DNA from: a virus
Lineage: Duplodnaviria; Heunggongvirae; Uroviricota; Caudoviricetes
DNA length: 18,400 nucleotides
Virus record (IMG/VR): IMGVR_UViG_2718218131_000010
Location: 1-18,400 of that record
Reading direction: 5' to 3' (one strand)
This document shows positions 1-15,333 of the stretch, piece after piece. The notes under the pieces were generated by a model. That model was not told where the DNA came from. It saw only the letters and a program-made list of their open reading frames with translations, and made no database searches. A program made the translations under genes and the position numbers. Position 1 is the stretch's first letter. Each line of letters starts with the position of its first letter.

Positions 1-582
1 ATGAAAGGCGAAGTGAAAGAGCGCGGCATGATTTTTAACGATGAGATGGTCCGGGCAATTCTTGGCGGGAATAAAACACAGACTCGCAGGATTGTTGAAG
101 AAAAATTCTATGGACGGGCAGTGGCCGCAGAGTTGCTTGCCAAGCATTGTCCATATGGTCAACCGGGCGATCGTATTTGGGTTCGCGAAACCTACCGGGT
201 ACATGGCAAAGCGACGGACGTCGCAACGCTGGTTTATCGCGCAAGTGTGCGTAACTCCTGGACAGAACAAACGCACCGGGTTCCGGTCGAGGTTTGTAAT
301 AAACCAGTATCAGAAAAGTGGACGCCATCAATTCACATGCCGCGCTGGGCATCGCGCATTCTTCTGGAAATTACCAACGTGCGCGTTGAGCGGTTGAACG
401 ATATCAGCGAATGCGATGCAAGGACTGAGGGCGCACCAACAGAATCGACCCTCATTGGCGATAAGCATTACCCAGGTTTCCGTAGCCTATGGAAATCAAT
501 TTATGGCGAAGATAGTTGGAACGCTAATCCCTGGGTGTGGGTAATCGAGTTTGAGCGTATTCAGGGGGCAACCAGTGAGTGA
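1..582 (+). CDS. ASCH/PUA-like domain protein (possibly 5' truncated at window edge; alternative start at 28)
   Basis: ORF track 193 aa; N-terminal MIFNDEMVRAILGGNKTQTRR...RIWVRETY resembles the ASCH-fold signature (GxKTxExR followed by beta strand). Stop TGA 580-582 overlaps the next gene start. Family assignment from memory of the motif, not a search. Confidence 0.5.
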   Translation: MKGEVKERGMIFNDEMVRAILGGNKTQTRRIVEEKFYGRAVAAELLAKHCPYGQPGDRIWVRETYRVHGKATDVATLVYRASVRNSWTEQTHRVPVEVCNKPVSEKWTPSIHMPRWASRILLEITNVRVERLNDISECDARTEGAPTESTLIGDKHYPGFRSLWKSIYGEDSWNANPWVWVIEFERIQGATSE

Positions 583-835
583 GTCAAAATGCCAAATTAA
601 TGGCAACAAGATAGAACCGTGCGCGGCGTTGGCACAATCCCTGGAGCATGACGCTGAATACACGACGCGAAAAGGTCTGCTGAAATACAAAATCTATAAC
701 CATGAATTAATTCATTCACGAGACCTGATCATGCTGCGGTCTGGTGAATTTTCTAAATCGCCTATTCGAGTTTCATTTTGCCCGTTCTGTGGTGAAAGTC
801 TGAAAACGTGGGAAGCGGAGGCAACCAGTGAGTAA
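575..835 (+). CDS. small Cys-rich (putative zinc-ribbon) protein, GTG start
   Basis: Frame-2 ORF; likely start GTG 575 preceded by GGGGCAACCA (SD-like); contains CxxxxxxxxxC and CPFC pairs; overlaps upstream stop by 8 nt (translational coupling). Confidence 0.4.
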   Translation: MSESKCQINGNKIEPCAALAQSLEHDAEYTTRKGLLKYKIYNHELIHSRDLIMLRSGEFSKSPIRVSFCPFCGESLKTWEAEATSE

Positions 836-1016
836 CCGTTTTTACATGATGTGCTTGCGTGAAACTGTGGGTAATAACGCCTCATTCCATTGCCATAACG
901 GCAATGGTTACAGTTCTTGGCGCGGCGGAAGCGTTTATGATGCAGAAGCATGGCGAGATGGCTATGAAGCAGGGAAAACGCCTGTCGAAGTATATTGTGA
1001 TGAGTGGGGTGGGTGA
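828..1016 (+). CDS. small hypothetical protein (62 aa), GTG start
   Basis: ORF track; GTG 828 preceded by GGAGGCAACCA; stop 1014-1016 abuts ATG 1017 of the next gene. Confidence 0.35.
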   Translation: MSNRFYMMCLRETVGNNASFHCHNGNGYSSWRGGSVYDAEAWRDGYEAGKTPVEVYCDEWGG

Positions 1017-1745
1017 ATGATTTGCCTTCACAACGCAGACTGCTTTGACATCTTTCCGCAAATCGCCAGCAACTCCGTAGATCTTGTATGTGCCGATATT
1101 CCATATGGAACAACTCGGTGTCGCTGGGATTCTGTTCTCGACCTGCAGTTGATGTGGAAGCAGATTTACCGTATTTCCAAACCGAACGCTGCAATTGTTC
1201 TGTTTTCCGCTCAGCCTTTTACCAGCGTGCTGGTCAACAGCAATCTTCGTGACTGGAAAACAGAATGGATTTGGGAAAAGCCACACGCGACAGGATTTTT
1301 GAACGCAAAAAAACAACCTTTAAGAGCGCATGAAAATATTGAAGTTTTTTACAGAAAGCAACCGACATACAACCCACAGATGACGTATGGGCACGCCAGA
1401 AAAACCTCAACAAGAGGTAGGCTGAATACTGATGTATATGGCGATGCGCTGAAAAAGGTCGTTTACGATTCAACAAGTCGCTATCCGAGAGACGTGCAGA
1501 AATTCTCCAGCGACAAGCAAAAGCAGGCACTTCATTCAACACAAAAGTCACTGGCTCTGGTGAGATATCTGATTGAAACATATAGCAATATTGGCGACAC
1601 GGTGTTGGATTTCACTATGGGTAGCGGAACTACTGGCGTTGCGTGCCAACAATCAGGACGCCGATTTACAGGAATAGAAAAAGATCCAGAAATTTTTCGT
1701 ATCGCATTAGAGCGTATGGGAATTAAACAGGAGCATGCAGCATGA
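1017..1745 (+). CDS. DNA N6-adenine/N4-cytosine methyltransferase (PF01555-like, beta class), orphan
   Basis: 242 aa; N-terminal SVDLVCADIPYG (motif IV, DPPY-like) and C-terminal HSTQKSLALVRYLIETYSNIGDTVLDFTMGSGTTGVACQQSGRRFTGIEKD (motif I FxGxG, AdoMet binding). No adjacent restriction endonuclease gene. Confidence 0.85.
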   Translation: MICLHNADCFDIFPQIASNSVDLVCADIPYGTTRCRWDSVLDLQLMWKQIYRISKPNAAIVLFSAQPFTSVLVNSNLRDWKTEWIWEKPHATGFLNAKKQPLRAHENIEVFYRKQPTYNPQMTYGHARKTSTRGRLNTDVYGDALKKVVYDSTSRYPRDVQKFSSDKQKQALHSTQKSLALVRYLIETYSNIGDTVLDFTMGSGTTGVACQQSGRRFTGIEKDPEIFRIALERMGIKQEHAA

Positions 1746-1763
1746 TTTTTGTGGAGGCAACCA

Positions 1764-1946
1764 GTGAGCGAAATTAACTATCAAGAACTGCGCGAGGCGG
1801 CGGAACAGGCAACGCAAGATGAATGGGTAGCATATATTTTGCCGGTCATAACGGCATTTATCCTGCGCGCACGTCTGAGGGTAGGCATTGCGGATACTTT
1901 ATTGACTGGCCTGGCGTCTGTCAGGGGCGGGAGAGCATCAGCATGA
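1764..1946 (+). CDS. small hypothetical protein (60 aa), GTG start; N-terminus paralogous to ORF 2560-2985
   Basis: GTG 1764 preceded by GGAGGCAACCA; first ~12 residues VSEINYQELREAA match VSKIDYQVLREAA of the 2560 gene; stop overlaps ATG 1943 (ATGA). Confidence 0.3.
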   Translation: MSEINYQELREAAEQATQDEWVAYILPVITAFILRARLRVGIADTLLTGLASVRGGRASA

Positions 1947-2563
1947 GCATCAGAACCTACGCAGTGAATTGCAATGACGCATGGCTAAACACCGAAGGTG
2001 ATGACATCTCCGGCTCATACGTTAAGTACAAAGACCATCAGGAAGTGGTTGCCGCTCTTGAGGCCAAGTGCGCGGCGCTGGCAGCGGAGAATGCAAGACT
2101 GAAGGCCGGGGCTATGTATTTCTCATATGGCTCTGAATTTAGTTTCGAGTGTCACAAAACTGCTGAGGAGGCTATCGCTGCTGCTGAGGCTGCAATTGAC
2201 GACTATAGAGGCGATGCTTGCGATGGATGGAGCGAAGAGGTCGAAAGCATTTGCTGGGGGGTAATTATTCAGCAGGCAACCAAGGTCGGTGAACGCAAGA
2301 AGAGGAAATGCGACAGAGTATCACCATGGATTGAAAGAGTTTGTGATTATGAGCTTCGACCTAATGTCGAAACCCCAGCCACCGATGCTTTCCTTGCTGA
2401 AGTTCGGGCGCAGGGCGTGGAGATGCTGGCAAAAAATCATCAAAGTATCGTCAATGCACTTAAGGGGGATTCTTTATTTTCTGATGGTGAATACCGGCAT
2501 GCAATTATCGCTTCCGCAGCAACATCTTTCGCCGCCCAGCTTCGCAAAGGAGGCAACCAGTGA
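1943..2563 (+). CDS. hypothetical protein (206 aa)
   Basis: ATG 1943 with GGGAG about 10 nt upstream; the track ORF 1823-2563 is trimmed to this start; stop TGA 2561-2563 overlaps GTG 2560 of the next gene. Confidence 0.5.
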   Translation: MSIRTYAVNCNDAWLNTEGDDISGSYVKYKDHQEVVAALEAKCAALAAENARLKAGAMYFSYGSEFSFECHKTAEEAIAAAEAAIDDYRGDACDGWSEEVESICWGVIIQQATKVGERKKRKCDRVSPWIERVCDYELRPNVETPATDAFLAEVRAQGVEMLAKNHQSIVNALKGDSLFSDGEYRHAIIASAATSFAAQLRKGGNQ

Positions 2564-2985
2564 GCAAGATTGACTATCAGGTACTGCGTGAGGCAGCAGT
2601 AGCAATTGAAACAGTAGCAACGCCTCAAAAATTGCTGGCATTTCGTATGAAAGTCACACCTCAGGTTGTGCTGGCACTACTGGATGAACGGGAAGCAGAC
2701 AAAAAGCGCATTGCAGAACTGGAAGCTCGGGAAATAAAACCAGCCAAAGGTGAAGTTCTTGTCGTTGTTTCTGGTTTTACTGGTTGCGGAAAAAGCGCCA
2801 TTGCCGGGGAAATAGAAATCGCGATGAAGGCTATTGGTGTACCGGTTCAGTGGACTAATGGCGATGCAGAAAAGCGCATGACTGGCGCTGACTGGCTGAC
2901 TGCGATTGAGATGTACAAACCAACTGTGCGCATCGTGGAAGTTAATGTGCCCCGCGCCGCAGGCATTCGCATCAAAGGAGAGTGA
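2560..2985 (+). CDS. hypothetical protein (141 aa) with Walker-A-like GFTGCGKS motif
   Basis: GTG start in the conserved GGAGGCAACCAGTGAG junction; motif VVVSGFTGCGKSA fits G-x4-GKS, but the protein is short for an NTPase and no Walker B was seen. Confidence 0.5.
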   Translation: MSKIDYQVLREAAVAIETVATPQKLLAFRMKVTPQVVLALLDEREADKKRIAELEAREIKPAKGEVLVVVSGFTGCGKSAIAGEIEIAMKAIGVPVQWTNGDAEKRMTGADWLTAIEMYKPTVRIVEVNVPRAAGIRIKGE

Positions 2986-2986
2986 T

Positions 2987-3502
2987 ATGGCGTTAACACA
3001 CCACGAACTCTGTCAGATTGCGTACAAGTTCCTTAAGCGCAACGGGTTCAAGGTTTGTTTTCATGACCGCTTTATAGCTGTAACCAGTACCGGAGAACAG
3101 CCAGATGCTATGGGATTCAGAAATTCAGCATCATGCCTGATAGAGGCGAAGTGTTCTCGTGCTGACTTGTTAGCAGATAGAAAAAAGCGTTTTCGTAAAA
3201 ATCCGTCTCTTGGAATGGGCGACTGGCGATTCTTTATTAGTGAGCCGGGAATTATTTCAATTGAGGATTTACCACCTGGCTGGGGGTTACTTCACGTTGT
3301 TAACGGAAGAGTACGGAAAGTACATGGGTGGCCCAAGGGTAATTGCTGTTGGGGTAATCCTGACGATAAGCCATTTACTGGAAATAAGCAGGTTGAATGC
3401 GATTACATGTTATCTGCATTAAGGCGCATGGAGTTGAGAGGGCACCTTAATGAAATATATGACGGTGTAATTGTTAATAAGAAAGAAGGAAACGCGGCAT
3501 GA
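2987..3502 (+). CDS. PD-(D/E)xK nuclease-fold protein (MmcB-like?), 171 aa
   Basis: ATG 2987 with AAAGGAGAG RBS; motif ...GEQPDAMGF...CLIEAKCSRADLL fits a D...(D/E)xK restriction-endonuclease-like core. Family call is tentative. Confidence 0.45.
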   Translation: MALTHHELCQIAYKFLKRNGFKVCFHDRFIAVTSTGEQPDAMGFRNSASCLIEAKCSRADLLADRKKRFRKNPSLGMGDWRFFISEPGIISIEDLPPGWGLLHVVNGRVRKVHGWPKGNCCWGNPDDKPFTGNKQVECDYMLSALRRMELRGHLNEIYDGVIVNKKEGNAA

Positions 3503-4485
3503 TCACTATTACCAAAGAGCGACTACTGACAATCAAGCAGTGGCGCGAAACATACGGACCTGGTAGCAACGTTGTACTGCCAGCAGAAGAAGCGGAAGAA
3601 CTGGCGCGGATTGCACTGGCATCACTGGAAGCAGATCCAGTTGCTTATATTTTCAAACATCCGGCCGGGAAATTATTCTGGGCTTTAACGGATGAAAGCA
3701 ATAAAGAGCAAGCTGACGTTATTCCTGTTTATGCTGCCGCGCCTGCGTCGGTTGTGCCGGATAATGCATCAGAGCCTCTTGCTTATGCTTACAAAGAGCT
3801 TACGCCTGAGATTATGCGCAACCATTTAGCTGTATTCGAGCGATATGGAATAGCCCCAAACGATAGCTCTACCACAATTCAGGCACTGCGAATCGCGCTG
3901 GATGGCATAGAGCGGAGCGGCGCCATGCTTCATGGTGCCGAACCTGTAAGCCAAACTTACAAGTTGCTAGTTAATACACCTTGCCAAGATGCGCCAGCCC
4001 ATATCTGGCTGCAAACAGCTGGAGTATGGCCAGAAGATGGCGAGTTAAGCGAATTAACGTGGTGCAGCCACAATCAGCACCATGATGACACGCTATATGT
4101 TCGAGCTGACCTTGTGAATGGCAACTATCCGGATATTCCGGATAGTTCGGTGCCAGGGCCAGGAAAGGGCGTCACCGGTGAACGTATCCGCATTAAACCG
4201 CATGTTTATCGCGAACTGGTTAACCGTCTCCACGATACAGCGATCAAGTGTGCGGGCACCCAGCAATTACGAGAAAGAATTAGCCGTGTTTTGGGCGACG
4301 TTATTACGCCAGATCATCATAAACAAGCCGAGAAAAGTGGCTTGGAAAGGTGTCACCTTGAGGCGGCATTAAACATTAAGCCGGGGCATACGCTTGGCAT
4401 TATTGATGCACTATTGGTTCATAAGATGGCCAGGGCTTTATTGCCGCTGGTGGATGCTGGCGATACAAGCGAGGGTGAAGTATGA
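3499..4485 (+). CDS. hypothetical protein (328 aa)
   Basis: ORF track; ATGA overlap with upstream stop; AAGAAGGAAACG RBS. Confidence 0.6.
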   Translation: MITITKERLLTIKQWRETYGPGSNVVLPAEEAEELARIALASLEADPVAYIFKHPAGKLFWALTDESNKEQADVIPVYAAAPASVVPDNASEPLAYAYKELTPEIMRNHLAVFERYGIAPNDSSTTIQALRIALDGIERSGAMLHGAEPVSQTYKLLVNTPCQDAPAHIWLQTAGVWPEDGELSELTWCSHNQHHDDTLYVRADLVNGNYPDIPDSSVPGPGKGVTGERIRIKPHVYRELVNRLHDTAIKCAGTQQLRERISRVLGDVITPDHHKQAEKSGLERCHLEAALNIKPGHTLGIIDALLVHKMARALLPLVDAGDTSEGEV

Positions 4486-4844
4486 GAGTTGCAGATCACA
4501 TCAAACACCTTGAAAGAATTATCGAAAACGGTGAACTCTTAAGAGATCAGATGAGACGCACGGCAGAAGTCAGAGAGGCGATAATCCGCAGTCAGGCTGG
4601 TAAATTAAAGCAATTGTCAGAGATTAACGCGCTATACAAGAACAGACGTAACCGGGCGGCGCTGCGGCTTCAGAAAGCACGTAATGAAATTAAATTGGTG
4701 GAGGCAAAACTGAAAAAACAGATTCAGCGTTACGATCAGCAAGATGCTTTTTATGCCGCCATCAAGGCGGCTGCTAATGAAATAGGCATCTGGAAGTTGC
4801 TGGTGGAGAAAGCAAAGACGAAGTTAAATGCCAACGAAAGCTGA
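4482..4844 (+). CDS. hypothetical coiled-coil protein (120 aa)
   Basis: ORF track; ATGA overlap with upstream gene; K/R/E-rich heptad-like composition. Confidence 0.55.
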   Translation: MRVADHIKHLERIIENGELLRDQMRRTAEVREAIIRSQAGKLKQLSEINALYKNRRNRAALRLQKARNEIKLVEAKLKKQIQRYDQQDAFYAAIKAAANEIGIWKLLVEKAKTKLNANES

Positions 4845-4918
4845 ACTACAGGTACCCACCAGCACATACAGAAAATGATTGTTTCCACATCAAGGAGATT
4901 TTAATGTTTCACTGAACA

Positions 4919-5056
4919 TTAAGTAAGCCAGTGCATAATTCCATTTTTTACTGACCTTAAAAGCAAAATCAAAACGATGATGAGGATGATCGCCAGAATC
5001 TGGCTAATAACAGGCGCATCTAAAAATGCACTCAGGAACTGAAAAAAAGCAGTCAT
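4919..5056 (-). CDS. candidate 45-aa hydrophobic single-TM peptide (MTAFFQFLSAFLDAPVISQILAIILIIVLILLLRSVKNGIMHWLT)
   Basis: Hand-translated minus-strand ORF below the 60-aa track cutoff; ATG at 5056-5054 with AGGA 9 nt upstream; one strongly hydrophobic helix followed by basic residues; stop at 4921-4919. Confidence 0.3.
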   Translation of the reverse strand: MTAFFQFLSAFLDAPVISQILAIILIIVLILLLRSVKNGIMHWLT

Positions 5057-5097
5057 TAAGGTGGTTCCTTGTCAAATGTAAAGGAGCACTTGCTCAC

Positions 5098-5126
5098 GTT
5101 GACGTAGAAACCCAACCCCTATATAG
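5098..5126 (+). promoter_or_regulatory. near-consensus sigma70 promoter (TTGACG-17 bp-TATAGT)
   Basis: -35 TTGACG 5098-5103, 17-bp spacer, -10 TATAGT 5121-5126; divergent from the small peptide gene; may drive hot via a long leader or a small RNA/ORF (5155-5352). Confidence 0.4.
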
Positions 5127-5505
5127 TTGGATTCGGTGAAAGAAAGTCGTTAACGTGAGCTTACGGCACATGTTTTCGGAACAACATCAGGGAACGGCTA
5201 ATTCCTTGATGCGGATGGGGTCTGTAATGCAGACCCTATCTATTAACGTCATGATTGCATCTCAAATTTTCTCCTTATCTTCATTAATCAAAATTCATTT
5301 CATTTGTGAAACATCACAATATTTAGAAAATGGCCCTCTTGCAAGTGCATAACTTTGTGGATAAATCAGGAAGAAAAAAGTTGATTCTGCGCACGGCAAG
5401 GCAGATAAGCTGTGCACAAAAATCAATGGGAGAAGAAAAAAAATTAAAAGTTACTTTGCTGGTTAAATAATAGTCGTTACTCAATTATTCTGGATGGGAT
5501 TTGAT

Positions 5506-5757
5506 ATGCACGATTGGAATATTGCAGCTAAAAGTCAGGAAGAACGGGATAAGGTTAACGTTGATCTGGCTGCCAGCGGTGTGGCGTACAAAGAGCGATT
5601 GAACATACCTGTCATAGCTGAACAGGTAGCCCGCGAGCAACCAGAGAATCTGCGCACCTATTTCATGGAACGGCTACGGCACTACCGGCAGTTAAGCCTC
5701 CAGTTGCCAAAAGGGAGCGATCCGGCATATCAGAAAGATGATGCCGTAAAGAAATAG
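5506..5757 (+). CDS. hot: Hot, homolog of DNA polymerase III theta subunit (HolE)
   Basis: [43 protein letters not shown] closely parallels E. coli HolE ([43 protein letters not shown]). Start at 5506 preferred (GGGA SD); in-frame alternative ATG at 5494. Confidence 0.85.
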
Positions 5758-5763
5758 CGGTAG

Positions 5764-6336
5764 TTAACCGTTTTGAACTTCTCGTATCCTGGCAATGACA
5801 GCTTCATGTTGGGCTTGGATAGCGGCTTTTTCGTTTTCAAGTCGGGCAATAGACATCTCTAATTCTTTGCTGTACCAGGCGAGTTGGGCCAGGTTCATCC
5901 GGTTGTGGTCGAGAGTTGGAGACACTTCGACGCGATCCCTTTCTTCCTGTTTTAATGAGAAGAGATTCATCTCATCCCTTGAGGAAAATTCAGCAACAAT
6001 TTCTTGTTGATGATCCGGTCGCTGCGGCATCCTCGCCAGTATAAATGGCGGTTCTTTTGAAAACATGAATGTCGGTTCAGAACGTGTTTTCACCCATCTA
6101 GCCTGCTGTCTTTCGGCAAGTTCACAGGCTTCATCATAGTTATTTGCCAAACCAAGCACGGATGGACGGTCCCACGCGCCACCATTCAGACAATAAACAA
6201 CAATTTTCCCGTCATGTTCTGTAACCCCATAGGGATGGTCCCACCAGGCGTCCAGCTGAGCTTTAGAGCGTTTCTCGTTAGGAGTGCAGTCAAAATTTTT
6301 GGGCAATACAGGATCGAGAGGAATGCGATTAGGCAT
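5764..6336 (-). CDS. hypothetical protein (190 aa), divergent from humD; position matches P1 lxr
   Basis: ORF track; lies between hot and humD as in the P1 gene order hot-lxr-humD (recalled, not verified by sequence). Confidence 0.55.
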   Translation of the reverse strand: MPNRIPLDPVLPKNFDCTPNEKRSKAQLDAWWDHPYGVTEHDGKIVVYCLNGGAWDRPSVLGLANNYDEACELAERQQARWVKTRSEPTFMFSKEPPFILARMPQRPDHQQEIVAEFSSRDEMNLFSLKQEERDRVEVSPTLDHNRMNLAQLAWYSKELEMSIARLENEKAAIQAQHEAVIARIREVQNG

Positions 6337-6471
6337 AGCTAATTCCTTATTAACTGATTGGCAACGAGGTTACGCTGATCCGTTGGTGATGAATAGTAGC
6401 AAAGAGCACAAAATCATCAGCGGTGGTTGATGTACGTAACGCGTTTGCACCAAAGGTGTCCCTTTAATGTA

Positions 6472-6491
6472 TACTGTATAAATGAACAGTA
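6472..6491. promoter_or_regulatory. LexA (SOS) box TACTGTATAAATGAACAGTA
   Basis: Matches the CTGT-N8-ACAG consensus exactly; 20 bp upstream of humD ATG; overlaps a TATAAA/TATACT -10 candidate with TTGCAC as a possible -35 at 6445-6450. Confidence 0.85.
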
Positions 6492-6510
6492 TTATTGAGG
6501 TGAAAACGCT

Positions 6511-6900
6511 ATGGGCTTCCCTTCTCCTGCGGCGGATTATGTTGAAAGCAGAATTTCTCTTGATCAGCAACTAATCAGGCATCCATCAGCGACCTACTTC
6601 ATGCGGGCGGCAGACAGCCATCACCGTGAGGGAATATTGCAGGGTGCTTTGCTGGTGGTTGATTCCTCGCTTACTCCGGTTGATGGTTCGCTGCTTGTCT
6701 GCGCTATGGAGGGTGAATATCGCATAAAGAGATACCGAAAGTATCCGCGCCAGCACCTGGAGGATTTAAGCACCGGGAAGAAAGAGGCGTTACCAGTAGA
6801 TGACGATGGTTACACGGGTAGTAATGCCGTGTTTGGTGTGATCACTCATGTCATCAATGATGCCCGGAGTGGGGAGTTTGATGATTGTCCGGTCATTTAA
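6511..6900 (+). CDS. humD: HumD, UmuD' homolog (translesion synthesis accessory)
   Basis: 129 aa; UmuD-like peptidase S24 C-terminal region (LLVCAMEGEYRIKRY...VFGVITHVIN); LexA box immediately upstream. Confidence 0.9.
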   Translation: MGFPSPAADYVESRISLDQQLIRHPSATYFMRAADSHHREGILQGALLVVDSSLTPVDGSLLVCAMEGEYRIKRYRKYPRQHLEDLSTGKKEALPVDDDGYTGSNAVFGVITHVINDARSGEFDDCPVI

Positions 6901-6972
6901 GCTGCAAAGTGCTGGTGCTTTATGCCTGTGAAGTTTATAATTGTGTACACATAACGAGTACACGAGGTGTTT

Positions 6973-7194
6973 ATGCAATCCATTAACTTCCGTACCGCGC
7001 GCGGCAACCTTTCTGAAGTGCTCAACAATGTTGAAGCCGGGGAAGAGGTTGAAATCACCCGCAGAGGCCGTGAGCCAGCAGTAATTGTCAGCAAGGCTAC
7101 TTTTGAAGCCTACAAAAAAGCGGCGCTGGATGCTGAATTTGCATCCCTGTTTGACACCCTGGACTCCACCAACAAGGAACTGGTTAACCGATAA
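6973..7194 (+). CDS. phd: Phd antitoxin (prevent host death)
   Basis: [49 protein letters not shown]... matches P1 Phd; TAATG overlap with doc. Confidence 0.95.
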
Positions 7195-7574
7195 TGAGGC
7201 ATATATCACCGGAAGAACTTATTGCGCTTCATGATGCGAATATAAACCGCTACGGCGGCTTGCCGGGAATGTCAGATCCGGGTAGGGCAGAGGCCATTAT
7301 CGGGAGAGTTCAGGCCAGAGTTGCCTACGAAGAGATCACCGACCTTTTCGAAGTCTCCGCCACCTACCTGGTGGCTACAGCGAGAGGGCATATATTCAAT
7401 GATGCCAATAAGCGTACCGCGCTAAACAGTGCGCTGTTATTTCTACGCCGTAACGGGGTGCAGGTATTTGATTCACCTGAACTGGCAGACCTTACTGTAG
7501 GCGCTGCGACTGGCGAGATATCTGTATCTTCTGTCGCCGACACGTTACGTAGATTGTATGGTTCTGCGGAGTAG
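7194..7574 (+). CDS. doc: Doc toxin (death on curing, Fic-fold kinase)
   Basis: 126 aa [22 protein letters not shown]...[11 protein letters not shown]... matches P1 Doc; 1-nt overlap with the phd stop. Confidence 0.95.
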
Positions 7575-7578
7575 ATTA

Positions 7579-7758
7579 ATGGCACGCAAATACAACAAAT
7601 TGTCCCGTGAAGCGTTAAAGATGCTTCTTGATGGCGTGAGTCGCCGCAAGGTAAAGCAATACCTGGTTGGTAAGCAAATTGGTGCCAGGACCGCTATTGC
7701 TGTGTTATGCCGTCAGGAAATGGTTGTGCTTAAACAGAGAATGCCGGGCAGCAGATAA
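7579..7758 (+). CDS. pdcA: small basic protein downstream of doc (pdcA by synteny)
   Basis: ATG 7579 with GGAG 7 nt upstream (track ORF begins at 7558 inside doc); symbol assigned from P1 gene order only. Confidence 0.5.
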   Translation: MARKYNKLSREALKMLLDGVSRRKVKQYLVGKQIGARTAIAVLCRQEMVVLKQRMPGSR

Positions 7759-7785
7759 AGCCCAATCAGTGATGAAAGGTGTGAT

Positions 7786-8829
7786 GTGAAAGCCGTAATT
7801 ACTCCCTTTGTACAAAAAGTGCTTGGCGTCGCCACATTCAAAGTGGATCAGGAAGTCAGAAAGCTGGTGGAGGCTGGCCGTAAATTTATTATGGAGCCGG
7901 TGCCGCGTGAGTTAATCGAGCACATGGACGACGGCCTCGTTGTTTCCGAGCAAACTATGGCAACAAATGAGGCGTTGCAGCCGTTTTTTAACAGCGATGA
8001 ACTGTTTCGCCGTATTGGTGGAATTGACTCGCTGGTGGCGTGGTTGCGCAGGAAAGAGGGGCAATGCCAGGCCGCAGATCGTAGTTGGTGTGACAACCAT
8101 ATTGTCCACGCTGAACGAGACAATAGCGCGGTGTTGTTGTGCTGGCATCACGATAACCATTACCGGATGCGTGGTTTTAATGAGCTGAAAGAAACGCTGC
8201 ATAATAATCGCGTTAACTGGATACTGGATGTCGCCCGTCAGGAAATGGGGCTTTCAGATGGCCATGATTTAAGTATTCAGGAACTGTGCTGGTGGGCTTT
8301 CATGCGCAACATGATGCACCTGATGCCGGAAGAAGTTTGCCGTATATCAATAAATAAGATGAAAGCCGCAACGCAGGATAGCGGACCTCTGAAAGAGGCG
8401 GATATTCGCCCGTATGACGATCGCGCTACAGCATATGTTCAGATGATGGAAGAACGCGCCGCGCCGATGCGTGCAAAAGTATGCCCTGTGGATGTAGACT
8501 CCGACCCTGGCATGGCGCATTTCAAAATACCAAAACTTCAATCGCTAAAATTGCCCGAGTACATGGACTTTGTGGCTTCCCGTCCATGCTGTGGCTGTGG
8601 AGCTGCGGGAGCTGGCGCTCACATTACGCCTTATATCGTTCGTCATAGTCGATTATGCGCGCATGACATTTATGCTATTCCTCTGTGCCAGTCATGCCAG
8701 CGTGATATTGAGCGTGACCTCGATAATTGGGAGAAGACGCACGGTAGGCTGGCGATGCATCAACGATTGTTCTTTGATTACGCGCTTGGAGTCGGCGCTA
8801 TCACAAGTCACTCGTCGAGCGTTAGATAA
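7786..8829 (+). CDS. pdcB: hypothetical protein 347 aa (pdcB by synteny); C-terminal Cys/His-rich region
   Basis: GTG start 7786 with AAAGG RBS; C-terminus contains [12 protein letters not shown]...C...H...C..C, a possible metal-binding/HNH-like region; symbol from P1 gene order. Confidence 0.6.
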
Positions 8830-8830
8830 A

Positions 8831-8847
8831 ATTGCTCTAATGTATTG
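8831..8847 (+). promoter_or_regulatory. C1 repressor operator-like site upstream of lpa (ATTGCTCTAATGTATTG)
   Basis: 13/17 match to the P1 C1 operator consensus ATTGCTCTAATAAATTT, including the invariant ATTGCTCTAAT core. Confidence 0.6.
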
Positions 8848-8917
8848 CTATTTCTTTAATCGAGGGTATTATATTCCACGTTGATTAGTTGACATGGGCT
8901 AATCAGTAGGTGACAGG

Positions 8918-9370
8918 ATGTTACTTAACTGGCAGGGACGCCACTTCATGGAAATAAATCACTCACGAATAACATCGTACGAGATTGCGGATTACATGAT
9001 CCGCACTAAATCTCTTCTATCAGCGAAAGAACTCGCAGCAATTCTTGAAAAGGAATACCCGCATCTGGATGTCGATAAGCGCGATGTTTATCTGCGCTTA
9101 AAGGCTATCGCTGTGTCTAAGTATTCGTCTGTTTTGATTGATGACAGTACACGCCCACGTAGATTTCAGATCCACTCTCTGAATCCTGAATTCTTTCGCC
9201 GCAGCCGCGCTCCGCGCCGGTTTGATGAAAAACTCCAGAACGAACTCTATATGACGCAGGACGAAAAGGAACGCCGGGAGCACCAGCCTTGGGTAATGGC
9301 GCGTCAACTTTTCAATAAGGTGGCCCGTCAGCACCGTCATTACGGTAATGCCACATCCGCACGTATCTGA
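8918..9370 (+). CDS. lpa: Lpa, late promoter activator
   Basis: 150-aa ORF directly preceded by a C1 operator and followed by pacA, as in P1; AGGTGA RBS before ATG 8918. Confidence 0.75.
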   Translation: MLLNWQGRHFMEINHSRITSYEIADYMIRTKSLLSAKELAAILEKEYPHLDVDKRDVYLRLKAIAVSKYSSVLIDDSTRPRRFQIHSLNPEFFRRSRAPRRFDEKLQNELYMTQDEKERREHQPWVMARQLFNKVARQHRHYGNATSARI

Positions 9371-9380
9371 TTGATTGCTT

Positions 9381-9399
9381 GCCCGTTCCGGGCCTTTTG
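9381..9399 (+). terminator. putative rho-independent terminator after lpa
   Basis: GCCCG-TTC-CGGGC stem-loop followed by CTTTTG. Confidence 0.4.
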
Positions 9400-9455
9400 A
9401 CATGTGACTTTCGTTACCCTCGCGTCAAAAAGAGTTTTTACGAAAGGAAGCATAA

Positions 9456-10649
9456 GTGACCTGGGACGATCACAAGAAGAATTTTGCTCGCCTGGCGCGA
9501 GATGGTGGTTACACCATCGCACAGTATGCCGCCGAGTTTAATCTTAACCCTAATACCGCACGTCGTTATCTCCGTGCCTTCAAAGAAGACACCAGGACTA
9601 CGGACAGCCGCAAGCCAAATAAGCCAGTCAGGAAGCCACTAAAAAGCATGATCATTGATCACTCTAATGATCAACATGCAGGTGATCACATTGCGGCTGA
9701 AATAGCGGAAAAACAAAGAGTTAATGCCGTTGTCAGTGCCGCAGTCGAGAATGTGAAGCGCCAAAATAAGCGCATAAATGATCGTTCAGATGATCATGAC
9801 GTGATCACCCGCGCCCACCGGACCTTACGTGATCGCCTGGAACGCGACACCCTGGATGATGATGGTGAACGCTTTGAATTCGAAGTTGGCGATTACCTGA
9901 TAGATAACGTTGAAGCGCGGAAGGCCGCGCGCGCTATGTTGCGTCGGTCCGGGGCCGATGTTCTGGAAACCACTCTTCTGGAAAAGTCTCTTTCTCATCT
10001 CCTTATGCTGGAGAATGCCAGGGATACGTGTATTCGCCTGGTGCAGGAAATGCGCGATCAGCAAAAAGACGATGATGAAGGTACTCCGCCTGAATACCGT
10101 ATCGCGAGCATGCTAAACAGCTGTTCCGCGCAGATAAGCAGCCTGATCAACACCATTTACAGCATCCGGAATAACTATCGAAAAGAAAGCCGGGAGGCGG
10201 AAAAGCACGCTTTGTCTATGGGGCAAGCTGGCATTGTTAAGCTGGCATACGAACGAAAGCGTGAAAATAACTGGTCAGTGCTGGAAGCAGCTGAATTCAT
10301 CGAGGCGCATGGCGGGAAAGTTCCGCCCCTGATGCTGGAGCAAATCAAAGCCGATCTGCGTGCTCCTAAGACCAATACCGATGATGAGGAAAGGCAGACA
10401 GCCGTCGGCGGCCCTTCTCTTGAAGATCTGGACAAAGTTGCGCGAGAACGGGCCGCCAACCGCCGCGCCGATGCCGCATTGTGGATTGAGCAGCGTAGGG
10501 AAGAAATCGCCGATATCGTTGATACAGGCGGTTATGGAGATGTTGATACTGAAGGTGTATCAAACGACCCATGGCTGGAACAAGACCTGGACGAAGACGA
10601 GGAGGAAGACGAAGAAGTTACCCGCAAGCTATACGGGGATGATGATTAA
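9456..10649 (+). CDS. pacA: PacA, terminase small/pac-recognition subunit
   Basis: 397 aa; contains the pac site internally; acidic C-terminal tail; GTG start with AAGGAAG RBS. Confidence 0.9.
9649..9807. other. pac packaging site: 4 + 3 TGATC(A/G) hexamers with Dam GATC cores
   Basis: TGATCA at 9649, 9656, 9668, 9683 and TGATCG/TGATCA at 9779, 9791, 9802 inside pacA; matches the known bipartite P1 pac architecture. Confidence 0.85.
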
Positions 10650-12133
10650 TGGCCAGAAGTTGCGTAACGGATCCACGTTGGCGCGAGCTGGTGGCGCTAT
10701 ATCGTTATGACTGGATTGCGGCCGCTGATGTTTTGTTTGGGAAGACACCAACCTGGCAGCAGGATGAGATCATTGAGTCCACGCAGCAGGACGGCAGTTG
10801 GACAAGTGTGACCTCCGGCCATGGTACTGGTAAGTCGGATATGACGAGTATCATTGCAATACTCTTCATCATGTTTTTCCCCGGCGCTCGCGTCATTCTG
10901 GTCGCTAACAAAAGACAGCAAGTCCTTGATGGTATTTTCAAATATATAAAGAGCAATTGGGCTACTGCTGTTAGCAGATTCCCGTGGTTGTCGAAGTATT
11001 TCATTCTTACAGAAACGTCTTTTTTTGAGGTGACTGGCAAGGGTGTTTGGACAATATTGATAAAGTCCTGTCGCCCCGGAAATGAGGAGGCGTTGGCTGG
11101 TGAACACGCCGATCATCTCTTGTATATCATCGACGAAGCGTCGGGTGTGAGTGATAAAGCATTCAGTGTGATAACAGGTGCGCTGACCGGTAAGGATAAC
11201 CGTATTCTGCTTCTTTCCCAGCCTACGCGACCTTCAGGCTATTTCTACGATTCACACCACAGACTAGCTATTCGCCCGGGAAATCCTGATGGATTGTTTA
11301 CTGCGATAATACTGAATAGTGAAGAATCTCCGCTTGTAGATGCAAAATTTATACGAGCAAAACTTGCGGAGTATGGCGGTCGTGATAACCCCATGTACAT
11401 GATCAAAGTACGTGGTGAATTTCCCAAATCTCAAGATGGCTTTCTTCTTGGTCGTGATGAGGTTGAGCGGGCGACGCGGCGAAAGGTCAAGATTGCCAAA
11501 GGATGGGGCTGGGTTGCATGTGTTGACGTTGCTGGTGGCACAGGACGAGATAAGTCCGTTATTAATATCATGATGGTGTCCGGCCAGCGAAATAAACGCC
11601 GTGTAATCAACTATCGTATGCTGGAATACACAGACGTTACAGAAACGCAGTTAGCCGCCAAGATTTTCGCAGAATGTAACCCAGAACGGTTCCCGAACAT
11701 AACCATAGCTATTGATGGCGATGGCTTGGGGAAATCGACGGCTGATCTGATGTACGAACGCTATGGTATTACCGTCCAGCGTATCCGCTGGGGTAAAAAG
11801 ATGCACAGCCGTGAAGATAAAAGCCTTTATTTCGATATGCGCGCTTTCGCGAATATTCAGGCGGCAGAAGCTGTAAAATCAGGGCGTATGCGGCTTGATA
11901 AGGGGGCTGCGACTATAGAGGAAGCATCAAAGATACCGGTCGGGATAAATTCCGCAGGTCAATGGAAGGTGATGTCAAAGGAAGATATGAAGAAAAAACT
12001 CAACCTGCACTCACCGGACCATTGGGATACATATTGTTTCGCTATGTTGGCGAACTATGTACCCCAAGATGAAGTGCTTAGCGTCGAAGACGAAGCGCAG
12101 GTTGATGAAGCTCTGGCATGGCTTAATGAGTAA
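10649..12133 (+). CDS. pacB: PacB, terminase large subunit
   Basis: 494 aa; start overlaps the pacA stop (TAATG); position and size as in P1. Confidence 0.9.
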
Positions 12134-12136
12134 AAA

Positions 12137-12153
12137 CTTGCTCTAATAAATTG
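12137..12153 (+). promoter_or_regulatory. C1 operator-like site (CTTGCTCTAATAAATTG)
   Basis: 15/17 match to the C1 operator consensus; sits 4 bp after the pacB stop at the head of the antirepressor module. Confidence 0.65.
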
Positions 12154-12154
12154 T

Positions 12155-12310
12155 GTTTTTTTGGCTGCCGATGTTACATTGAACCTGAACTCTTGCGCCT
12201 TGAGGCATTTTCGGTTTATGCTTATCAGGCACCTCATTAAAACGGGTGCCGGGATTGGAACCCCGGATAATGCAAAAGGCGACACAGACGCCAAAAGCGT
12301 CTTTTTTTGT
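12155..12310 (+). ncRNA. candidate C1-controlled small RNA or leader segment ending at an intrinsic terminator
   Basis: No ORF; contains GGCUGCC (12164-12170) and a hairpin CCGGG-AUUGGAAC-CCCGG (12249-12266); ends with GACGC-CAAAA-GCGTC followed by T7 (12287-12308). Confidence 0.3.
12287..12308 (+). terminator. rho-independent terminator (GACGCCAAAAGCGTC + TTTTTTT)
   Basis: 5-bp GC stem, 5-nt loop, 7 T run; flanked by GACACA / TGTGTC extending the stem. Confidence 0.6.
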
Positions 12311-12339
12311 GTCATGCCATCGCACAGCCATACGTAGCA

Positions 12340-12493
12340 CATAGCTCCGAGATCAATGGTAGTGCTGGCTGGGCTGCCGAAAGGCAGGCCGGTTCCCTTT
12401 TGCGCCGGTAGTTCCAACCCAGTCAGTGCTACCGCCATTGAGATTGGAACCTCACGCGGTAGCTCCTAAAGTTAGCAAAAGGAGGCTGCCATT
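12340..12493 (+). promoter_or_regulatory. structured leader upstream of the icd-like ORF with anti-SD and kissing-loop elements
   Basis: Local hairpin CUGCC-GAAA-GGCAG (12373-12387); hairpin CGGTAG...CTACCG with GUUCCAAC in its loop (12405-12435); second AUUGGAACC (12443-12451); GGCUGCC overlapping the SD GGAGG (12481-12490). Confidence 0.4.
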
Positions 12494-12715
12494 ATGGCTA
12501 CTATCCCTACCCCAACTCACCCTGAATTTATCTGGCGCTTTTACTCCTGCCAGAAACGTCACTATCACTTCGTTATCGCAACAACAGAAGATGAGGCCCG
12601 CTCTCAGCTTCCTGACGCCCCATGTATTTTCTCTGCCCGTTTTTCCACTGATTCACGCAATTCTCTCAGTTACTGGTGCCTCCCTGTTAACGCTTCTGCT
12701 CAGGAGGGACTATGA
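12494..12715 (+). CDS. small ORF translationally coupled to the antirepressor (icd-like position)
   Basis: 73 aa; GGAGG 8 nt upstream; stop TGA overlaps the ant ATG (ATGA), the same coupling architecture as icd-ant in P1 immI. Confidence 0.45.
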   Translation: MATIPTPTHPEFIWRFYSCQKRHYHFVIATTEDEARSQLPDAPCIFSARFSTDSRNSLSYWCLPVNASAQEGL

Positions 12716-13824
12716 GAACGTCATTAGTCACCCGTGAAGAGATGATCGAGGCAATTGAACGGCACACTGCCTGTATCAGTACCAGGGATATACCGGGCGT
12801 TATTGCCAACTACTTCATGATCACCAAACAACTTTACCGGAGAAAGGACAAGAACGCGGTTCACCGCATCCTGCTAACCGATATCCGTGAATACCTGCTC
12901 GAACAGGGTCATCTGAATTACGCAACCGTCGCAGCCGAAGCACGCAAGGAGGCACACAGAATGAAAGCAACTAACGTTAAATCAGAAAAAATTCATGCAC
13001 CTTCAGTTCAGGAATCGGAACTGGTGGTTGTTCAGAATCAGCCGGATGAAATTCCCGTTCTGGAATGGCAGGGAGTACGTGTCGTGACAACCGAAACTCT
13101 TGCTAGAGGGTATGGGGTCGATGAAGCCAATATTCGCAACAATTTGTCTCGCAACCTTGACCGCTTTGAAGAAGGTAAGCATTACTTTCTTCTAACTGGT
13201 TTAAAATTAAGAGAATTTAAGAACAGAGTAACCGGAAGTTACTCTGTTGGTAAGAACGCCAGAAGCCTTACACTCTGGACAGAGCGCGGCGCTGCACGCA
13301 TGTCTAAGATCGTGGACACAAATGAAGCATGGGCATTCTTTGAAAAACTGGAAGACAGCTACTTCCGGCAAAAAGAACAGCAACCGGTTGCAATCCCCCA
13401 GACGCTTCCAGAAGCTCTGCGCCTGGCTGCCGAACTGGCTGAACAAAAGCAGCTTCTGGAACAGAAAGCCCACCAGCTAAATCAGCAGCTGGTGGCCGCC
13501 GCTCCTAAAGTCGATTTTGCCGACCGGGTATCAGTAGCTAAAGGGATCCTGATTGGGAATTTTGCAAAGGTTGTTGGACTTAAGCAAAACGCGCTGTTTG
13601 CCTGGTTACGGGAGAACGGCATCCTGATAGCGTCCGGTGGACGTAAAAATGTGCCGTTCCAGCAGTACATCAATGCGGGGTATTTCACGGTGAAAGAAGT
13701 GGTGCTGGATGATGAAGATGGCTACCAGATACGGTTGACGCCTCAATTAACGGGTAAAGGCCAGCAGTGGTTGACGCGTAAACTGCTCGATGCTGGCTTG
13801 TTAAAACCGGTGGCGGCTGAATAA
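12712..13824 (+). CDS. phage antirepressor (Ant-like; ORF6N N-terminal and KilA-C/ANT C-terminal domains)
   Basis: 370 aa; VRVVTTETLARGYGVDEANIRNNLSRNLDRFEEGKHYF...LTLWTERGAARMSKIVDTNEAWAFFEKL (ORF6N-like) and FAKVVGLKQNALFAWLRENGIL...VPFQQYINAGYFTVKE (KilA-C/ANT-like). Confidence 0.75.
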   Translation: MRTSLVTREEMIEAIERHTACISTRDIPGVIANYFMITKQLYRRKDKNAVHRILLTDIREYLLEQGHLNYATVAAEARKEAHRMKATNVKSEKIHAPSVQESELVVVQNQPDEIPVLEWQGVRVVTTETLARGYGVDEANIRNNLSRNLDRFEEGKHYFLLTGLKLREFKNRVTGSYSVGKNARSLTLWTERGAARMSKIVDTNEAWAFFEKLEDSYFRQKEQQPVAIPQTLPEALRLAAELAEQKQLLEQKAHQLNQQLVAAAPKVDFADRVSVAKGILIGNFAKVVGLKQNALFAWLRENGILIASGGRKNVPFQQYINAGYFTVKEVVLDDEDGYQIRLTPQLTGKGQQWLTRKLLDAGLLKPVAAE

Positions 13825-13833
13825 TGGAAGAAT

Positions 13834-13862
13834 GCCCGGTTGATGCCGGGCATAATTTATTG
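13834..13862. terminator. convergent terminator hairpin between ant-like gene and c1
   Basis: GCCCGG-TTGATG-CCGGGC followed by ATAATTTATT; overlaps the c1 stop codon region. Confidence 0.5.
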
Positions 13863-14708
13863 CGCGCTTTCGGGGTTGTCGTTTACTGGCTGCCCCTTCT
13901 TGGTTTTACGGCTGCGCGTAACTGATGCGGCTGACTTAACCTTTTTCTCTTCGCGAGTGATGGCAATTTGTTTTTTTACATTTTCAATATCTGCCAGGCG
14001 ATATATTTTTGCTTGCGGCCAGCGGTCGCAGATGATCGGTTCTATGGAGTCATAAAGGCTAAATTTTGCTTTTTCGAATTCACCGTTGATGATAATTCCA
14101 TCACGGAGAGTTTCATCGCAGATAAACACGCCACACAGTGGCACATGGTAACTAACTGATTTACCATCATTGTAGTTAGGGCTACTGGAAATGTAGTGGA
14201 CGCGCAGCATTGTTTCGCTAAAGCCGTGTACGCGCATACGGAATTTTTCATCCTCCGGGTACTGCTTCATTAGCTCTTTTGTTGCTTCCAGGTTCTCTAT
14301 GTATTTCGCACTGTGCTCATTGATCCCCGCGCTTTTTTGGATGCGAATGTCCTTATCAATCAGATGAATAATGCGGCCAGCGGTCATGTTGACGCTGTTC
14401 ACAGCTTCTGTCTGATAAGTTGTAACCTTACGCACACCGCGAAGGATGTTAGGCACAGGATATAAAATAGTCTTTGGGATATTGAGATCTGGGTACTGTT
14501 CCAGTTCCCGCGCCATTAAAGTCCATTTATCAATTTCTGCCTGAATGCTGTCCGTTTCTTTGAACGGCAGAACGACAACCGGGCGTACAGGACGACCGTC
14601 GCTGGCGGCATCAACGTGTTGGGCGCGTGCAACAGCTTTTTTTAGAAAGAGATCCCTGAAGCTGACGAACTCCTGGTACAGTTGTTCGCCGTAGACATAA
14701 TTTATCAT
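13857..14708 (-). CDS. c1: C1 repressor of lysogeny
   Basis: 283 aa MINYVYGEQLYQEFVSFRDLFLKK... matches P1 C1 as recalled; multiple C1 operators in the vicinity. Confidence 0.95.
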   Translation of the reverse strand: MINYVYGEQLYQEFVSFRDLFLKKAVARAQHVDAASDGRPVRPVVVLPFKETDSIQAEIDKWTLMARELEQYPDLNIPKTILYPVPNILRGVRKVTTYQTEAVNSVNMTAGRIIHLIDKDIRIQKSAGINEHSAKYIENLEATKELMKQYPEDEKFRMRVHGFSETMLRVHYISSSPNYNDGKSVSYHVPLCGVFICDETLRDGIIINGEFEKAKFSLYDSIEPIICDRWPQAKIYRLADIENVKKQIAITREEKKVKSAASVTRSRKTKKGQPVNDNPESAQ

Positions 14709-14802
14709 TGATCCTCCTCCAGAATTGACATGGCCAACAACTCACAGCGGATAACACTGAGAGTTGTTGGGCACCATTATAGAAGGATCTAACGAAAATA
14801 AT

Positions 14803-14819
14803 AGATTTATTAGTGCATT
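14803..14819 (-). promoter_or_regulatory. C1 operator-like site between coi and c1
   Basis: Minus-strand AATGCACTAATAAATCT, 14/17 match to the consensus. Confidence 0.5.
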
Positions 14820-14821
14820 TA

Positions 14822-15028
14822 TTATGAGTCTGGCTGGTTAGTGGTCATGAGATATTCAATTGTGTCAGTGAGATCATCTAGGTCGTCGGGGGTGATACGG
14901 TACTCCTGATTGGATATCTTTGAGTAGTGTTCAGCAATGGCGCGAGCAGCGTCGGTTTCGGTGGGATCTACAGATAAAGCGTTAGAGCAATGTCTAACGT
15001 CGTCGATAGTTGGTGGAATGAAAGCCAT
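14822..15028 (-). CDS. coi: Coi, C1 inactivator
   Basis: 68-aa acidic ORF immediately upstream of c1 on the same strand, as in P1 immC. Confidence 0.8.
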   Translation of the reverse strand: MAFIPPTIDDVRHCSNALSVDPTETDAARAIAEHYSKISNQEYRITPDDLDDLTDTIEYLMTTNQPDS

Positions 15029-15250
15029 AATTATGCCTCACTGTATTTACAACACAGAGCCTGAAGCTCTGACCTACTGTTTCACCCATGATCCATGCTG
15101 GGGTTATCTAACAACATTGCGCTGTGTGTAAGATGAGCAATGCATAGCTGTAATGCCCTGTTTGCTCATTTCCTTCTGAGCCGCTCTACAACACTGAAGA
15201 CACATTAAATAGTGAATCCAAAGTCGTATTACGAAACGGCGGCAAAGCTA

Positions 15251-15267
15251 TAATTTATTAGAGCAAT
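15251..15267 (-). promoter_or_regulatory. C1 operator (Op99-type), minus orientation
   Basis: Reverse complement ATTGCTCTAATAAATTA, 16/17 match. Confidence 0.65.
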
Positions 15268-15333
15268 TGTCAAACAACTATGAAAAACAATCCAGTTTTT
15301 GGCTGGTGGAGTGGGATTTTACTCTCAAAATTT

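Follow-up and report, generated by a model that had tools for sequence, protein, structure and literature searches.

A 16-nt sequence that recurs four times at gene junctions of a P1-like phage-plasmid probably acts as a short conserved boundary 'linker' between accessory-gene cassettes, at which short-homology recombination adds, removes or exchanges single cassettes. The sequence, here termed J1, lies in an 18,400-nt stretch of Caudoviricetes DNA (IMG/VR record IMGVR_UViG_2718218131_000010, positions 1 to 18,400; hereafter the window), of which positions 1-4500 are 100% identical to the Escherichia coli IncY plasmid NZ_CP148475.1, a P1-like phage-plasmid. J1 was found both in P1-like phage-plasmids, within the operon that occupies the pmgT position, and in lambdoid phages, within the exo-xis (Ea22) section of the early-left operon. 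In these settings it combines identity between unrelated flanks, location at gene boundaries and coinciding breakpoints of homology.

In the window, the J1-bearing operon comes after pap and replaces pmgT-pmgU of P1; in P7 and P1, a C1-repressor operator and sigma-70 promoters are annotated before this operon, a position that falls upstream of the window. The passages searched in a survey of P1-like phage-plasmids (PMC9603915, Microbiol Spectr 2022) treat the same locus as the variable 'region 8' (pmgT…humD), one of eight hypervariable regions, with gp99-gp100-gp101-adsM-ra22-gp104 in place of pmgT in phage JL22; a junction sequence or mechanism for region 8 was not found in those passages. 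A search of the plasmid database PLSDB matched 640 records of P1-like plasmids. Against the early-left (exo-xis, 'ea') region of Shiga toxin (Stx) and other lambdoid phages, some stretches of the operon show 96-98% identity.

Four copies of an initiation junction

A pattern search of the window returned four exact matches of GGRGGCAACCAGTGAG, all on the plus strand. J1 is defined as GG(A/G)GGCAACCAGTGAG, that is, GGAGG or GGGGG followed by CAACCA and a GTG start; with its spacer variant (CAACCA/CAGCCA) it reads GGAGGCA(A/G)CCAGTGAG. A repeat finder recovered the same four copies at spacings of 253, 936 and 796 nt. This bears out the preliminary description of the stretch, which had reported a four-copy junction of a Shine-Dalgarno (SD) sequence, 6 nt and a GTG start, except that the first copy begins at 564 and not, as given there, at 565. 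No fifth J1 with up to two mismatches was present on either strand of the window. Four copies compare with a chance expectation of 0.01, a number that none of 200 shuffled sequences reached, and in 100 kb of the identical 104.5-kb plasmid J1 is limited to these four sites.

Every copy straddles the end of one open reading frame (ORF) of the window and the start of the next, the ORFs opened by copies 1-4 being 575-835, 828-1016, 1764-1946 and 2560-2985. The upstream stop overlaps the junction at copies 1, 2 and 4, with the protein ends ATSE or GGNQ that had been noted at the outset: the first gene of the operon (gene 1) ends …IQGATSE* (stop 580-582), the 575-835 gene …EAEATSE* (stop 833-835) and the 1943-2563 gene …QLRKGGNQ*, its TGA lying within GTGA. 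At copy 3, the stop of a methyltransferase gene (1743-1745) lies 8 nt before J1. On its sequence, J1 thus has the features of an SD-type initiation region with an overlapping or adjacent upstream stop, and it probably drives translation.

The shared first codons reported earlier for the genes starting at 1764 and 2560 were also recovered (VSEINYQELREAA vs VSKIDYQVLREAA); both are Ead_Ea22 (PF13935) heads, scoring 35.9 and 40.2 bits, respectively (cut-off 27), and around copies 3 and 4 the similarity extends to 49 nt at 86% identity. PF13935 was not matched by the genes that follow copies 1 and 2. We rejected an origin of the whole set of copies by tandem duplication of one gene, since copies 1 and 2 are followed by genes unrelated to Ea22 and the upstream frames differ. 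We likewise rejected a clustered regularly interspaced short palindromic repeats (CRISPR) array, in agreement with the first assessment: such an array needs regular repeats of 24-48 nt and noncoding spacers of similar length, whereas the J1 set has repeats of 16-19 nt, irregular spacings and protein-coding intervals.

Across all contexts retrieved, there were 84 distinct cases of an upstream ORF that reads J1 in frame 0 (…GGNQ*, with the TGA inside GTGA) and ~50 in frame 1 (…(E/G)ATSE…), where the stop, at +16, +22 or +28, is supplied by the downstream gene. As two reading frames are in use, conservation acts at the nucleotide level and does not reflect a protein constraint. Nor does the need for a ribosome-binding site (RBS) explain J1, because 102 different spacers are in use at 169 distinct GGAGG-N5-8-start sites (with at least 50 codons after the start) and yet CAACCA+GTG dominates: it occupies 22 of the 169 sites, its one-base variant CAGCCA+GTG seven, and the next commonest spacer at most five.

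Reassorted flanks and junction-to-junction differences

More than 120 IMG/VR contigs, a lower bound, contain an exact copy of the 16-mer. Of the J1 contigs listed, ~7 belong to P1-like elements; int, xis, exo, bet or recT of the lambda type were present in at least 33, and another 44 have exo-xis-region genes only. J1 is therefore chiefly a feature of the lambdoid exo-xis/Ea22 region that is also found in P1-like elements, and not one specific to P1.

Among the matches listed, 152 J1 occurrences were grouped by context into 32 clusters on the left and 18 on the right, joined in 62 combinations, counts that do not equal independent events, as this viral-contig sample was picked by the exact motif and is redundant, and its loci are related. 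When 596 Gb of genome sequence were scanned for the 16-mer, a search in which ~280 chance matches are expected, the matches listed were scattered single ones in unrelated taxa. Singleton viral contexts may hence partly be chance matches, and our conclusions rest on clusters seen at least twice, which (again among the matches listed) hold 132 occurrences in 17 left and 9 right clusters with 42 combinations. Of these, eleven left clusters have at least two different right partners, and every one of the nine right clusters has at least two left partners. There are 40 complete 2 x 2 tables, 14 of which involve a non-Ea22 gene. In contexts without a …QLRK end or an Ea22 head, similarity falls to background at once outside J1, with 16/16 identity inside. 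J1 opens five unrelated non-Ea22 families that each turned up two or more times and whose similarity ends directly behind GTGAG, and three unrelated families (upf87.4, R11 and an R4-type Ea22 gene) have J1 at both ends.

In an initial set of nine relatives (L numbers below are our labels), the end of gene 1 (…gagcgtattcaggg + J1) was joined to three different downstream genes. Relatives of the operon were also compared in 80 loci picked by gene 1 alone, without reference to J1. Gene 1 ends in J1 in 26 of 26 P1-like loci (at least 97% amino acid identity; one has GTG changed to ATG), and at least four different genes follow this J1. Homologues of gene 1 at 54-85% identity mostly end …EFKRIQ*, without J1 or the GATSE tail, which identifies that tail as read-through into the linker. 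Gene content between the junctions varies among the P1-like relatives, with 21 different gene orders in the 25 loci that have both anchor genes; neither an invariant gene content nor a motif conserved merely as an ordinary RBS, the two outcomes that would have spoken against a cassette boundary, was observed.

Two pairs of relatives differ from the window exactly from one J1 copy to another. L009 and L137 align to window positions 1-580 and 820-917 at 99-100% identity, leaving a 253-bp difference, and L007 and L146 align to 1-579 and 1756-2403, also at 99-100%, leaving one of 1189 bp; in the relatives, the paired alignments overlap by 14 and 13 nt, respectively, which is the J1 core. Judged by sequence, both differences are as expected for the product of recombination between J1 copies. 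Together with the reassorting left and right flanks in lambdoid contigs, these motif-to-motif indels support the earlier proposal of a cassette boundary reused by recombination.

Homology between P1-like and lambdoid elements also begins at the junctions, in blocks of 96-98% identity that start at J1 or at a second recurrent junction, J2. Homology with the Stx2c phage EH1904 (L005 6632-6732, 97%) spans window positions 817-917, from the first base of J1 copy 2, and that with phage Lyz12581Vzw has two starts, one at 2545 and the other at the J2 junction's first base, 2962. As a separate observation, the exact-motif pattern flags no J1 in the EH1904 block, where the lambdoid copy presumably has a variant base. 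In JL22, the window sequence is replaced from 1806, just inside the Ea22 head, to 2704, so that the longer homology of J1 plus head appears to be used as well.

In all-against-all comparisons of the operons, 121 of 1670 unique homology breakpoints were no more than 12 nt away from a J1 edge, where 14.3 +/- 3.7 were expected and the highest count in 1000 randomisations was 30, an ~8-fold excess to be read as relative enrichment only, the counts being inflated by strict BLAST extension settings and by the relatedness of the loci. A breakpoint within 25 nt was seen at 38 of 39 J1 junctions and at 131 of 199 other gene starts. The idea of a hotspot for swapping accessory genes, also put forward in the preliminary description, thus gains from the many gene orders and the breakpoint excess; it has to be qualified in that J1 is not the sole boundary, other junctions and breakpoints inside genes being present too.

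Possible mechanism and competing explanations

If J1 acts as a linker, it would supply a full initiation signal, namely a strong SD, a 6-nt A/C-rich spacer and GTG, usually with an overlapping or abutting stop. Being identical and co-oriented, J1 copies can pair with each other: pairing inside one array would lead to unequal exchange or deletion and pairing between co-resident phages to exchange, whereby whole genes would be removed, inserted or swapped. Since J1 holds the SD, spacer and start, new neighbours would stay translatable and coupled, and an upstream gene would read into the linker in whichever frame it arrives, ending in a short GGNQ or (E/G)ATSE tail. We infer that joining at J1 is homology-driven and that the arrangement is selectively maintained. 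Plausible enzymes would be phage annealases of the Rad52 type (Red-beta, RecT, Erf), the lambdoid region lying beside phage recombination genes, or else RecA together with P1 Ref, a protein that stimulates RecA-dependent recombination; RdgC and a member of the Ref family are encoded on the plasmid. Published work shows that phage recombinases can use short or diverged homology: the minimal segment for efficient pairing is put at 23-27 bp with Red-beta and at 31-34 bp with RecA, while RecET acts on 5-13 bp of homology at ~1e-8. J1 itself offers 16 nt of exact identity; where the upstream gene ends in …QLRK this grows to ~29-31 nt, and between Ea22 heads the match spans 49 nt at 86%.

Several observations, besides the sampling and relatedness of the loci, weigh against J1 as an exchange linker. 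With 16 nt falling short of the minimal segment of Red-beta and RecA, events at J1 alone should be rare, albeit feasible over evolutionary time. J1 is not invariant, since 24 Ea22-head contexts found without the motif comprised 13 exact copies, six one-base variants and five diverged forms; lambda keeps only GTGAGCGAAATTAAC of it, and lambda and P22 differ. Each of the J1-to-J1 indels may be an insertion or a deletion. Many breakpoints in the operon lie away from J1, several of them inside genes, and 66% of the other gene starts carry one too. Finally, neither end of the reference P1 deletion (~536 and 4119) coincides with J1.

Part of this pattern would follow if J1 had simply been inherited, as the 5' end of Ea22 genes fused to a …QLRKGGNQ 3' end, and had reached other places through remnants, tandem duplication and illegitimate in-frame fusions followed by selection. 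Ea22 heads do make up most right contexts and …QLRK ends most left ones, copies 3 and 4 sit on paralogous heads, the operon contains chimeric and frameshifted genes, and the diverged versions in P22 and lambda are what descent predicts; descent with the Ea22 family explains much of the J1 distribution. As a full account we nevertheless regard it as rather unlikely, given that five unrelated families open with J1 without any similarity beyond GTGAG, that unrelated upstream genes use another frame of J1, that the flanks of the J1-to-J1 indels are nearly identical and overlap exactly on J1, and that 40 complete 2 x 2 tables are hard to obtain by descent and fusion alone. Still less probable is that J1 is an ordinary, convergently optimised RBS that takes no part in joining, mosaicism arising by illegitimate recombination and selection. 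GGAGG with 6 nt and a start is canonical, stop/start overlaps are common in phage operons, breakpoints occur at most gene boundaries with or without J1, and on the prevailing view most mosaic boundaries lack a conserved sequence. An RBS, however, does not constrain the spacer and the two bases after the start, and CAACCA+GTG nonetheless exceeds any unrelated spacer 4-fold; the 16/16 identity across unrelated flanks, the exact alignment overlaps and the 8-fold excess of breakpoints at J1 edges point the same way.

Two further readings assign J1 a dedicated partner. It could be an RNA-level operator, a common target of a trans-acting small RNA (sRNA) or translational repressor, which would be compatible with a role in recombination; all copies lie on the transcribed strand over the SD and start, where such regulators act, and conservation exceeds the needs of an RBS. 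We hold this to be very improbable: a complement (up to two mismatches or at least 10 contiguous nt) was absent from 100 kb of the plasmid and from the window, host sRNAs lying outside that search, the four sites have no RNA fold in common (z-scores -1.6 to +1.4) and no Rfam match, and no conserved candidate regulator gene accompanies J1 across P1-like and lambdoid contexts. That J1 is the site of a site-specific recombinase or nuclease, in the manner of integrons, would suit a promoterless cassette array with a repeated site and one regulated promoter upstream, as well as a lambdoid region that adjoins xis-int. Yet J1 shows neither dyad symmetry nor inverted repeats of the attC kind, lies within coding sequence read in two frames and is not consistently adjacent to a recombinase, the only tyrosine recombinase of the plasmid being Cre, ~15 kb away and with its own lox site, which makes this reading extremely improbable.

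Related junctions, known systems and neighbouring genes

J1 is not the only recurrent junction. A motif-blind ranking of 12-mers by flank diversity placed GGCAACCAGTGA near the top and also recovered GGTGCAGCATGA (an alternative junction), GGCATTCGCATCAAAGGAGAGTGAT (J2), ATGACCACTATTACCAAA (J3) and ATTGCTCTAATAA. The last of these probably matches the P1 C1 operator. J2 and J3 each occur in several unrelated contexts; J2 recurs in 4-6 left and 4-7 right contexts, its sequence being the same before HK620 hkaF, and the starts of high-scoring segment pairs cluster at 3481-3500, near J3. In distant lineages, GAAGGCGGTGCAGCATGA forms another shared junction at the end of the gene 1 homologue. No fewer than six different genes come after it there, among them one for a DPPW methyltransferase and others with Ea22-type heads (L173, L176-L181, L184, L202, L204, L205, L208 and others; at ~10,640, with the gene 1 start at 10,001).

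J1 precedes most Ea22 heads of the E. coli lineage. In HK620, the hkaH/hkaG junction reads GGAGGCAGCCAGTGAG, which is J1 with one mismatch, and in P22 (L132) the genes eaD (start 25499) and eaF (25855) share the 26 nt CAGCCCAATGAGCAACATCGACAAAC, comprising SD spacer, ATG and first codons; to judge from its sequence, this is a diverged J1 counterpart repeated within P22. Since the HK620, lambda and P22 versions differ, lineages carry different junction forms, and the sequences suggest that lineage-specific linker forms exist. As a more tentative extension, it is possible that J1 and its sister junctions (J2, J3 and the GAAGGCGGTGCAGCATGA form) make up a selectively maintained, recombinase-independent cassette system, a homology-based analogue of integrons in which lineage-specific linker forms define exchange pools. 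Two unrelated temperate phage families, P1-like myovirus phage-plasmids and lambdoid phages, would then trade single accessory genes by short homology, and traded genes would be expressed at once from a repressor-controlled promoter via a standard initiation linker.

The concept of conserved boundaries is already known. The analysis of HK620 reportedly described seven short conserved sequences bounding functional modules in the metabolic domains of lambdoid phages. According to later papers, the modular theory of Susskind & Botstein and Clark et al. 2001 (HK620; J Mol Biol 311:657) saw short conserved boundary sequences as foci of homologous recombination that assort modules; the later papers also point out that most mosaic boundaries lack them. 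Like the lambdoid linkers, J1 is short, conserved between unrelated flanks, placed at boundaries and common to a subset of related phages; it differs in acting at the level of single genes, in being present in several copies in one operon, in doubling as SD and start, and in being shared with P1-like phage-plasmids. A full-text search found the J1 sequence in no relevant paper (one unrelated Drosophila match), the text of Clark et al. 2001 lying outside that search, and boundary sequences are not mentioned in a 2022 paper on lambdoid co-transfer. J1 is thus a real and well-supported further case of a conserved boundary, for which no description was found, and its notable points are its single-gene resolution, its double use as an initiation signal and its presence in both P1-like phage-plasmids and lambdoid phages.

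With integron arrays, the J1 operon has in common promoterless genes, a repeated site, gain, loss and reordering of genes, and one regulated promoter upstream (with a C1 operator according to P1/P7 annotation). Integrons, in contrast, use attC and IntI, whereas the J1 operon has no annotated integrase nearby and no structured attC; unlike attC, the J1 repeat is a 16-nt initiation sequence in coding DNA, and joining would most simply be homology-based. Identity with an integron was rejected, as there is no nearby IntI and no inverted repeat or shared fold at J1. A closer likeness is found in mycobacteriophage Island3, where ~50 bp common to the ends of the unrelated adjacent genes 67/68 were read as a recombination site for insertion (Pope et al. 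2011); this is a single case in one phage pair, whereas J1 occurs in many combinations across its contigs. The Ead/Ea22 family (PF13935; lambda exo-xis region), whose heads are found in the 1764 and 2560 genes, pairs high diversity with a conserved K/RGE end in the searched passages of Dydecka 2020. There, published work on Ea22 concerns protein function, described as pro-lysogenic; the same passages hold nothing on conserved nucleotide junctions or cassette exchange, and the terms 'mosaic' and 'start codon' were not found in the paper.

The origin of mosaic phage genomes is an old question. On the prevailing view, linkers cannot be found at most boundaries and illegitimate recombination with selection dominates. 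J1 clearly exemplifies the conserved-boundary route to phage mosaicism, proposed long ago but seldom observed, and its locus is an unusually clean, countable counter-example to that view that makes the linker hypothesis directly testable. It also explains one known hypervariable region of P1-like phage-plasmids, which currently attract interest as carriers of resistance genes, and suggests a natural design for gene cassettes that are still expressed after exchange.

Table 1 Junctions and genes of the variable operon (window coordinates)
Feature	Position	Strand	Description
J1 copy 1 (GGGGGCAACCAGTGAG)	564-579	+	GGGGG form (G at position 3); start of 575-835 gene; gene 1 reads through in frame 1
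J1 copy 2 (GGAGGCAACCAGTGAG)	817-832	+	Start of 828-1016 gene; read through by 575-835 gene (…EATSE*); endpoint of 253-bp indel
J1 copy 3	1753-1768	+	Start of Ea22-type head at 1764; endpoint of 1189-bp indel
J1 copy 4	2549-2564	+	Start of Ea22-like gene 2560-2985; commonest context type in lambdoid contigs
J2 (GGCATTCGCATCAAAGGAGAGTGAtATG)	2962-2989	+	Ea22 K/RGE 3' end, SD and start of next gene
J3 (ATGATCACTATTACCAAAGAG; consensus ATGACCACTATTACCAAA)	3499-3519	+	EaA/DUF551-type head MT/ITITKER; ATGA(C/T)CACTATTACCAAAGA
Gene 1	1-582	+	P7 upf86.8-like, phrog_874; conserved left anchor; last 5 codons are J1 read-through
upf87.4-like cassette, 86 aa	575-835	+	J1 at both ends; present or absent as 253-bp unit
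62-aa chimeric gene	828-1016	+	Residues 1-30, phrog_2457 (P7 upf87.6) head; residues 30-61, phrog_519 tail
Orphan N6/N4 DNA methyltransferase cassette	1017-1745	+	PF01555, E=6.7e-28
Frameshifted Ea22-type gene	1764-2563 (split 1764-1946 + 1943-2563)	+	From J1 copy 3 into J1 copy 4
Ead/Ea22-like gene, 141 aa	2560-2985	+	PF13935; end …IRIKGE*
pmgV-like gene	4482-4844	+	Conserved right anchor; 98% identity to P1 from 4119 on

The genes of the operon are summarised in Table 1; three more lie beyond 2985, the last of them pmgV-like. In the chimeric 828-1016 gene, upf87.6 homology stops at ~917, and this ORF is unannotated in the RefSeq entry of the identical plasmid. An intact, 195-aa version of the 1764-2563 gene is present in a lambdoid contig (L019), with the same residues in one frame and the end …QLRKGGNQ*; in the window, its head matches PF13935 and its tail positions 101-239 of phrog_368. 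The split form, annotated as a 60-aa 'Ea22-like' gene and a 206-aa hypothetical gene, recurs in L007 and L146 and has its own PHROG, phrog_14804; it represents a frameshift pseudogene that is widespread or else programmed frameshifting. Start annotation is inconsistent across records: in the identical plasmid (L001), RefSeq places three starts (8605, 9167 and 9625) further downstream, by 45, 180 and 126 nt, than the J1, J2 and J3 starts at 2560, 2987 and 3499, which are the starts used in JL22, P7 and HK620.

Reference P1 has only pmgT-pmgU-pmgV at this locus, without J1. Its pmgT (L333, NC_005856, 6489-7558, compared with window 1-4485) consists of the 5' part of gene 1 fused to an out-of-frame interior of gene 9, and pmgU is the tail (C-terminal third) of window gene 9. 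pmgT and pmgU thus look like deletion remnants, and as fusion remnants of genes 1 and 9 they indicate that laboratory P1 lost the entire cassette array in a deletion from ~536 to 4119.

Elsewhere in the window, Rfam identified the P1 immI C4 antisense RNA at 12352-12439 (76.7 bits) and, just upstream, an isrK-family RNA at 12229-12307 (62.4 bits). A mercury-resistance operon (merR, merT…) lies directly downstream of cre (window ~15845-18400, corresponding to plasmid positions 55750-58305), and the plasmid carries IS26 copies, a TnpB gene and an ompC gene elsewhere.

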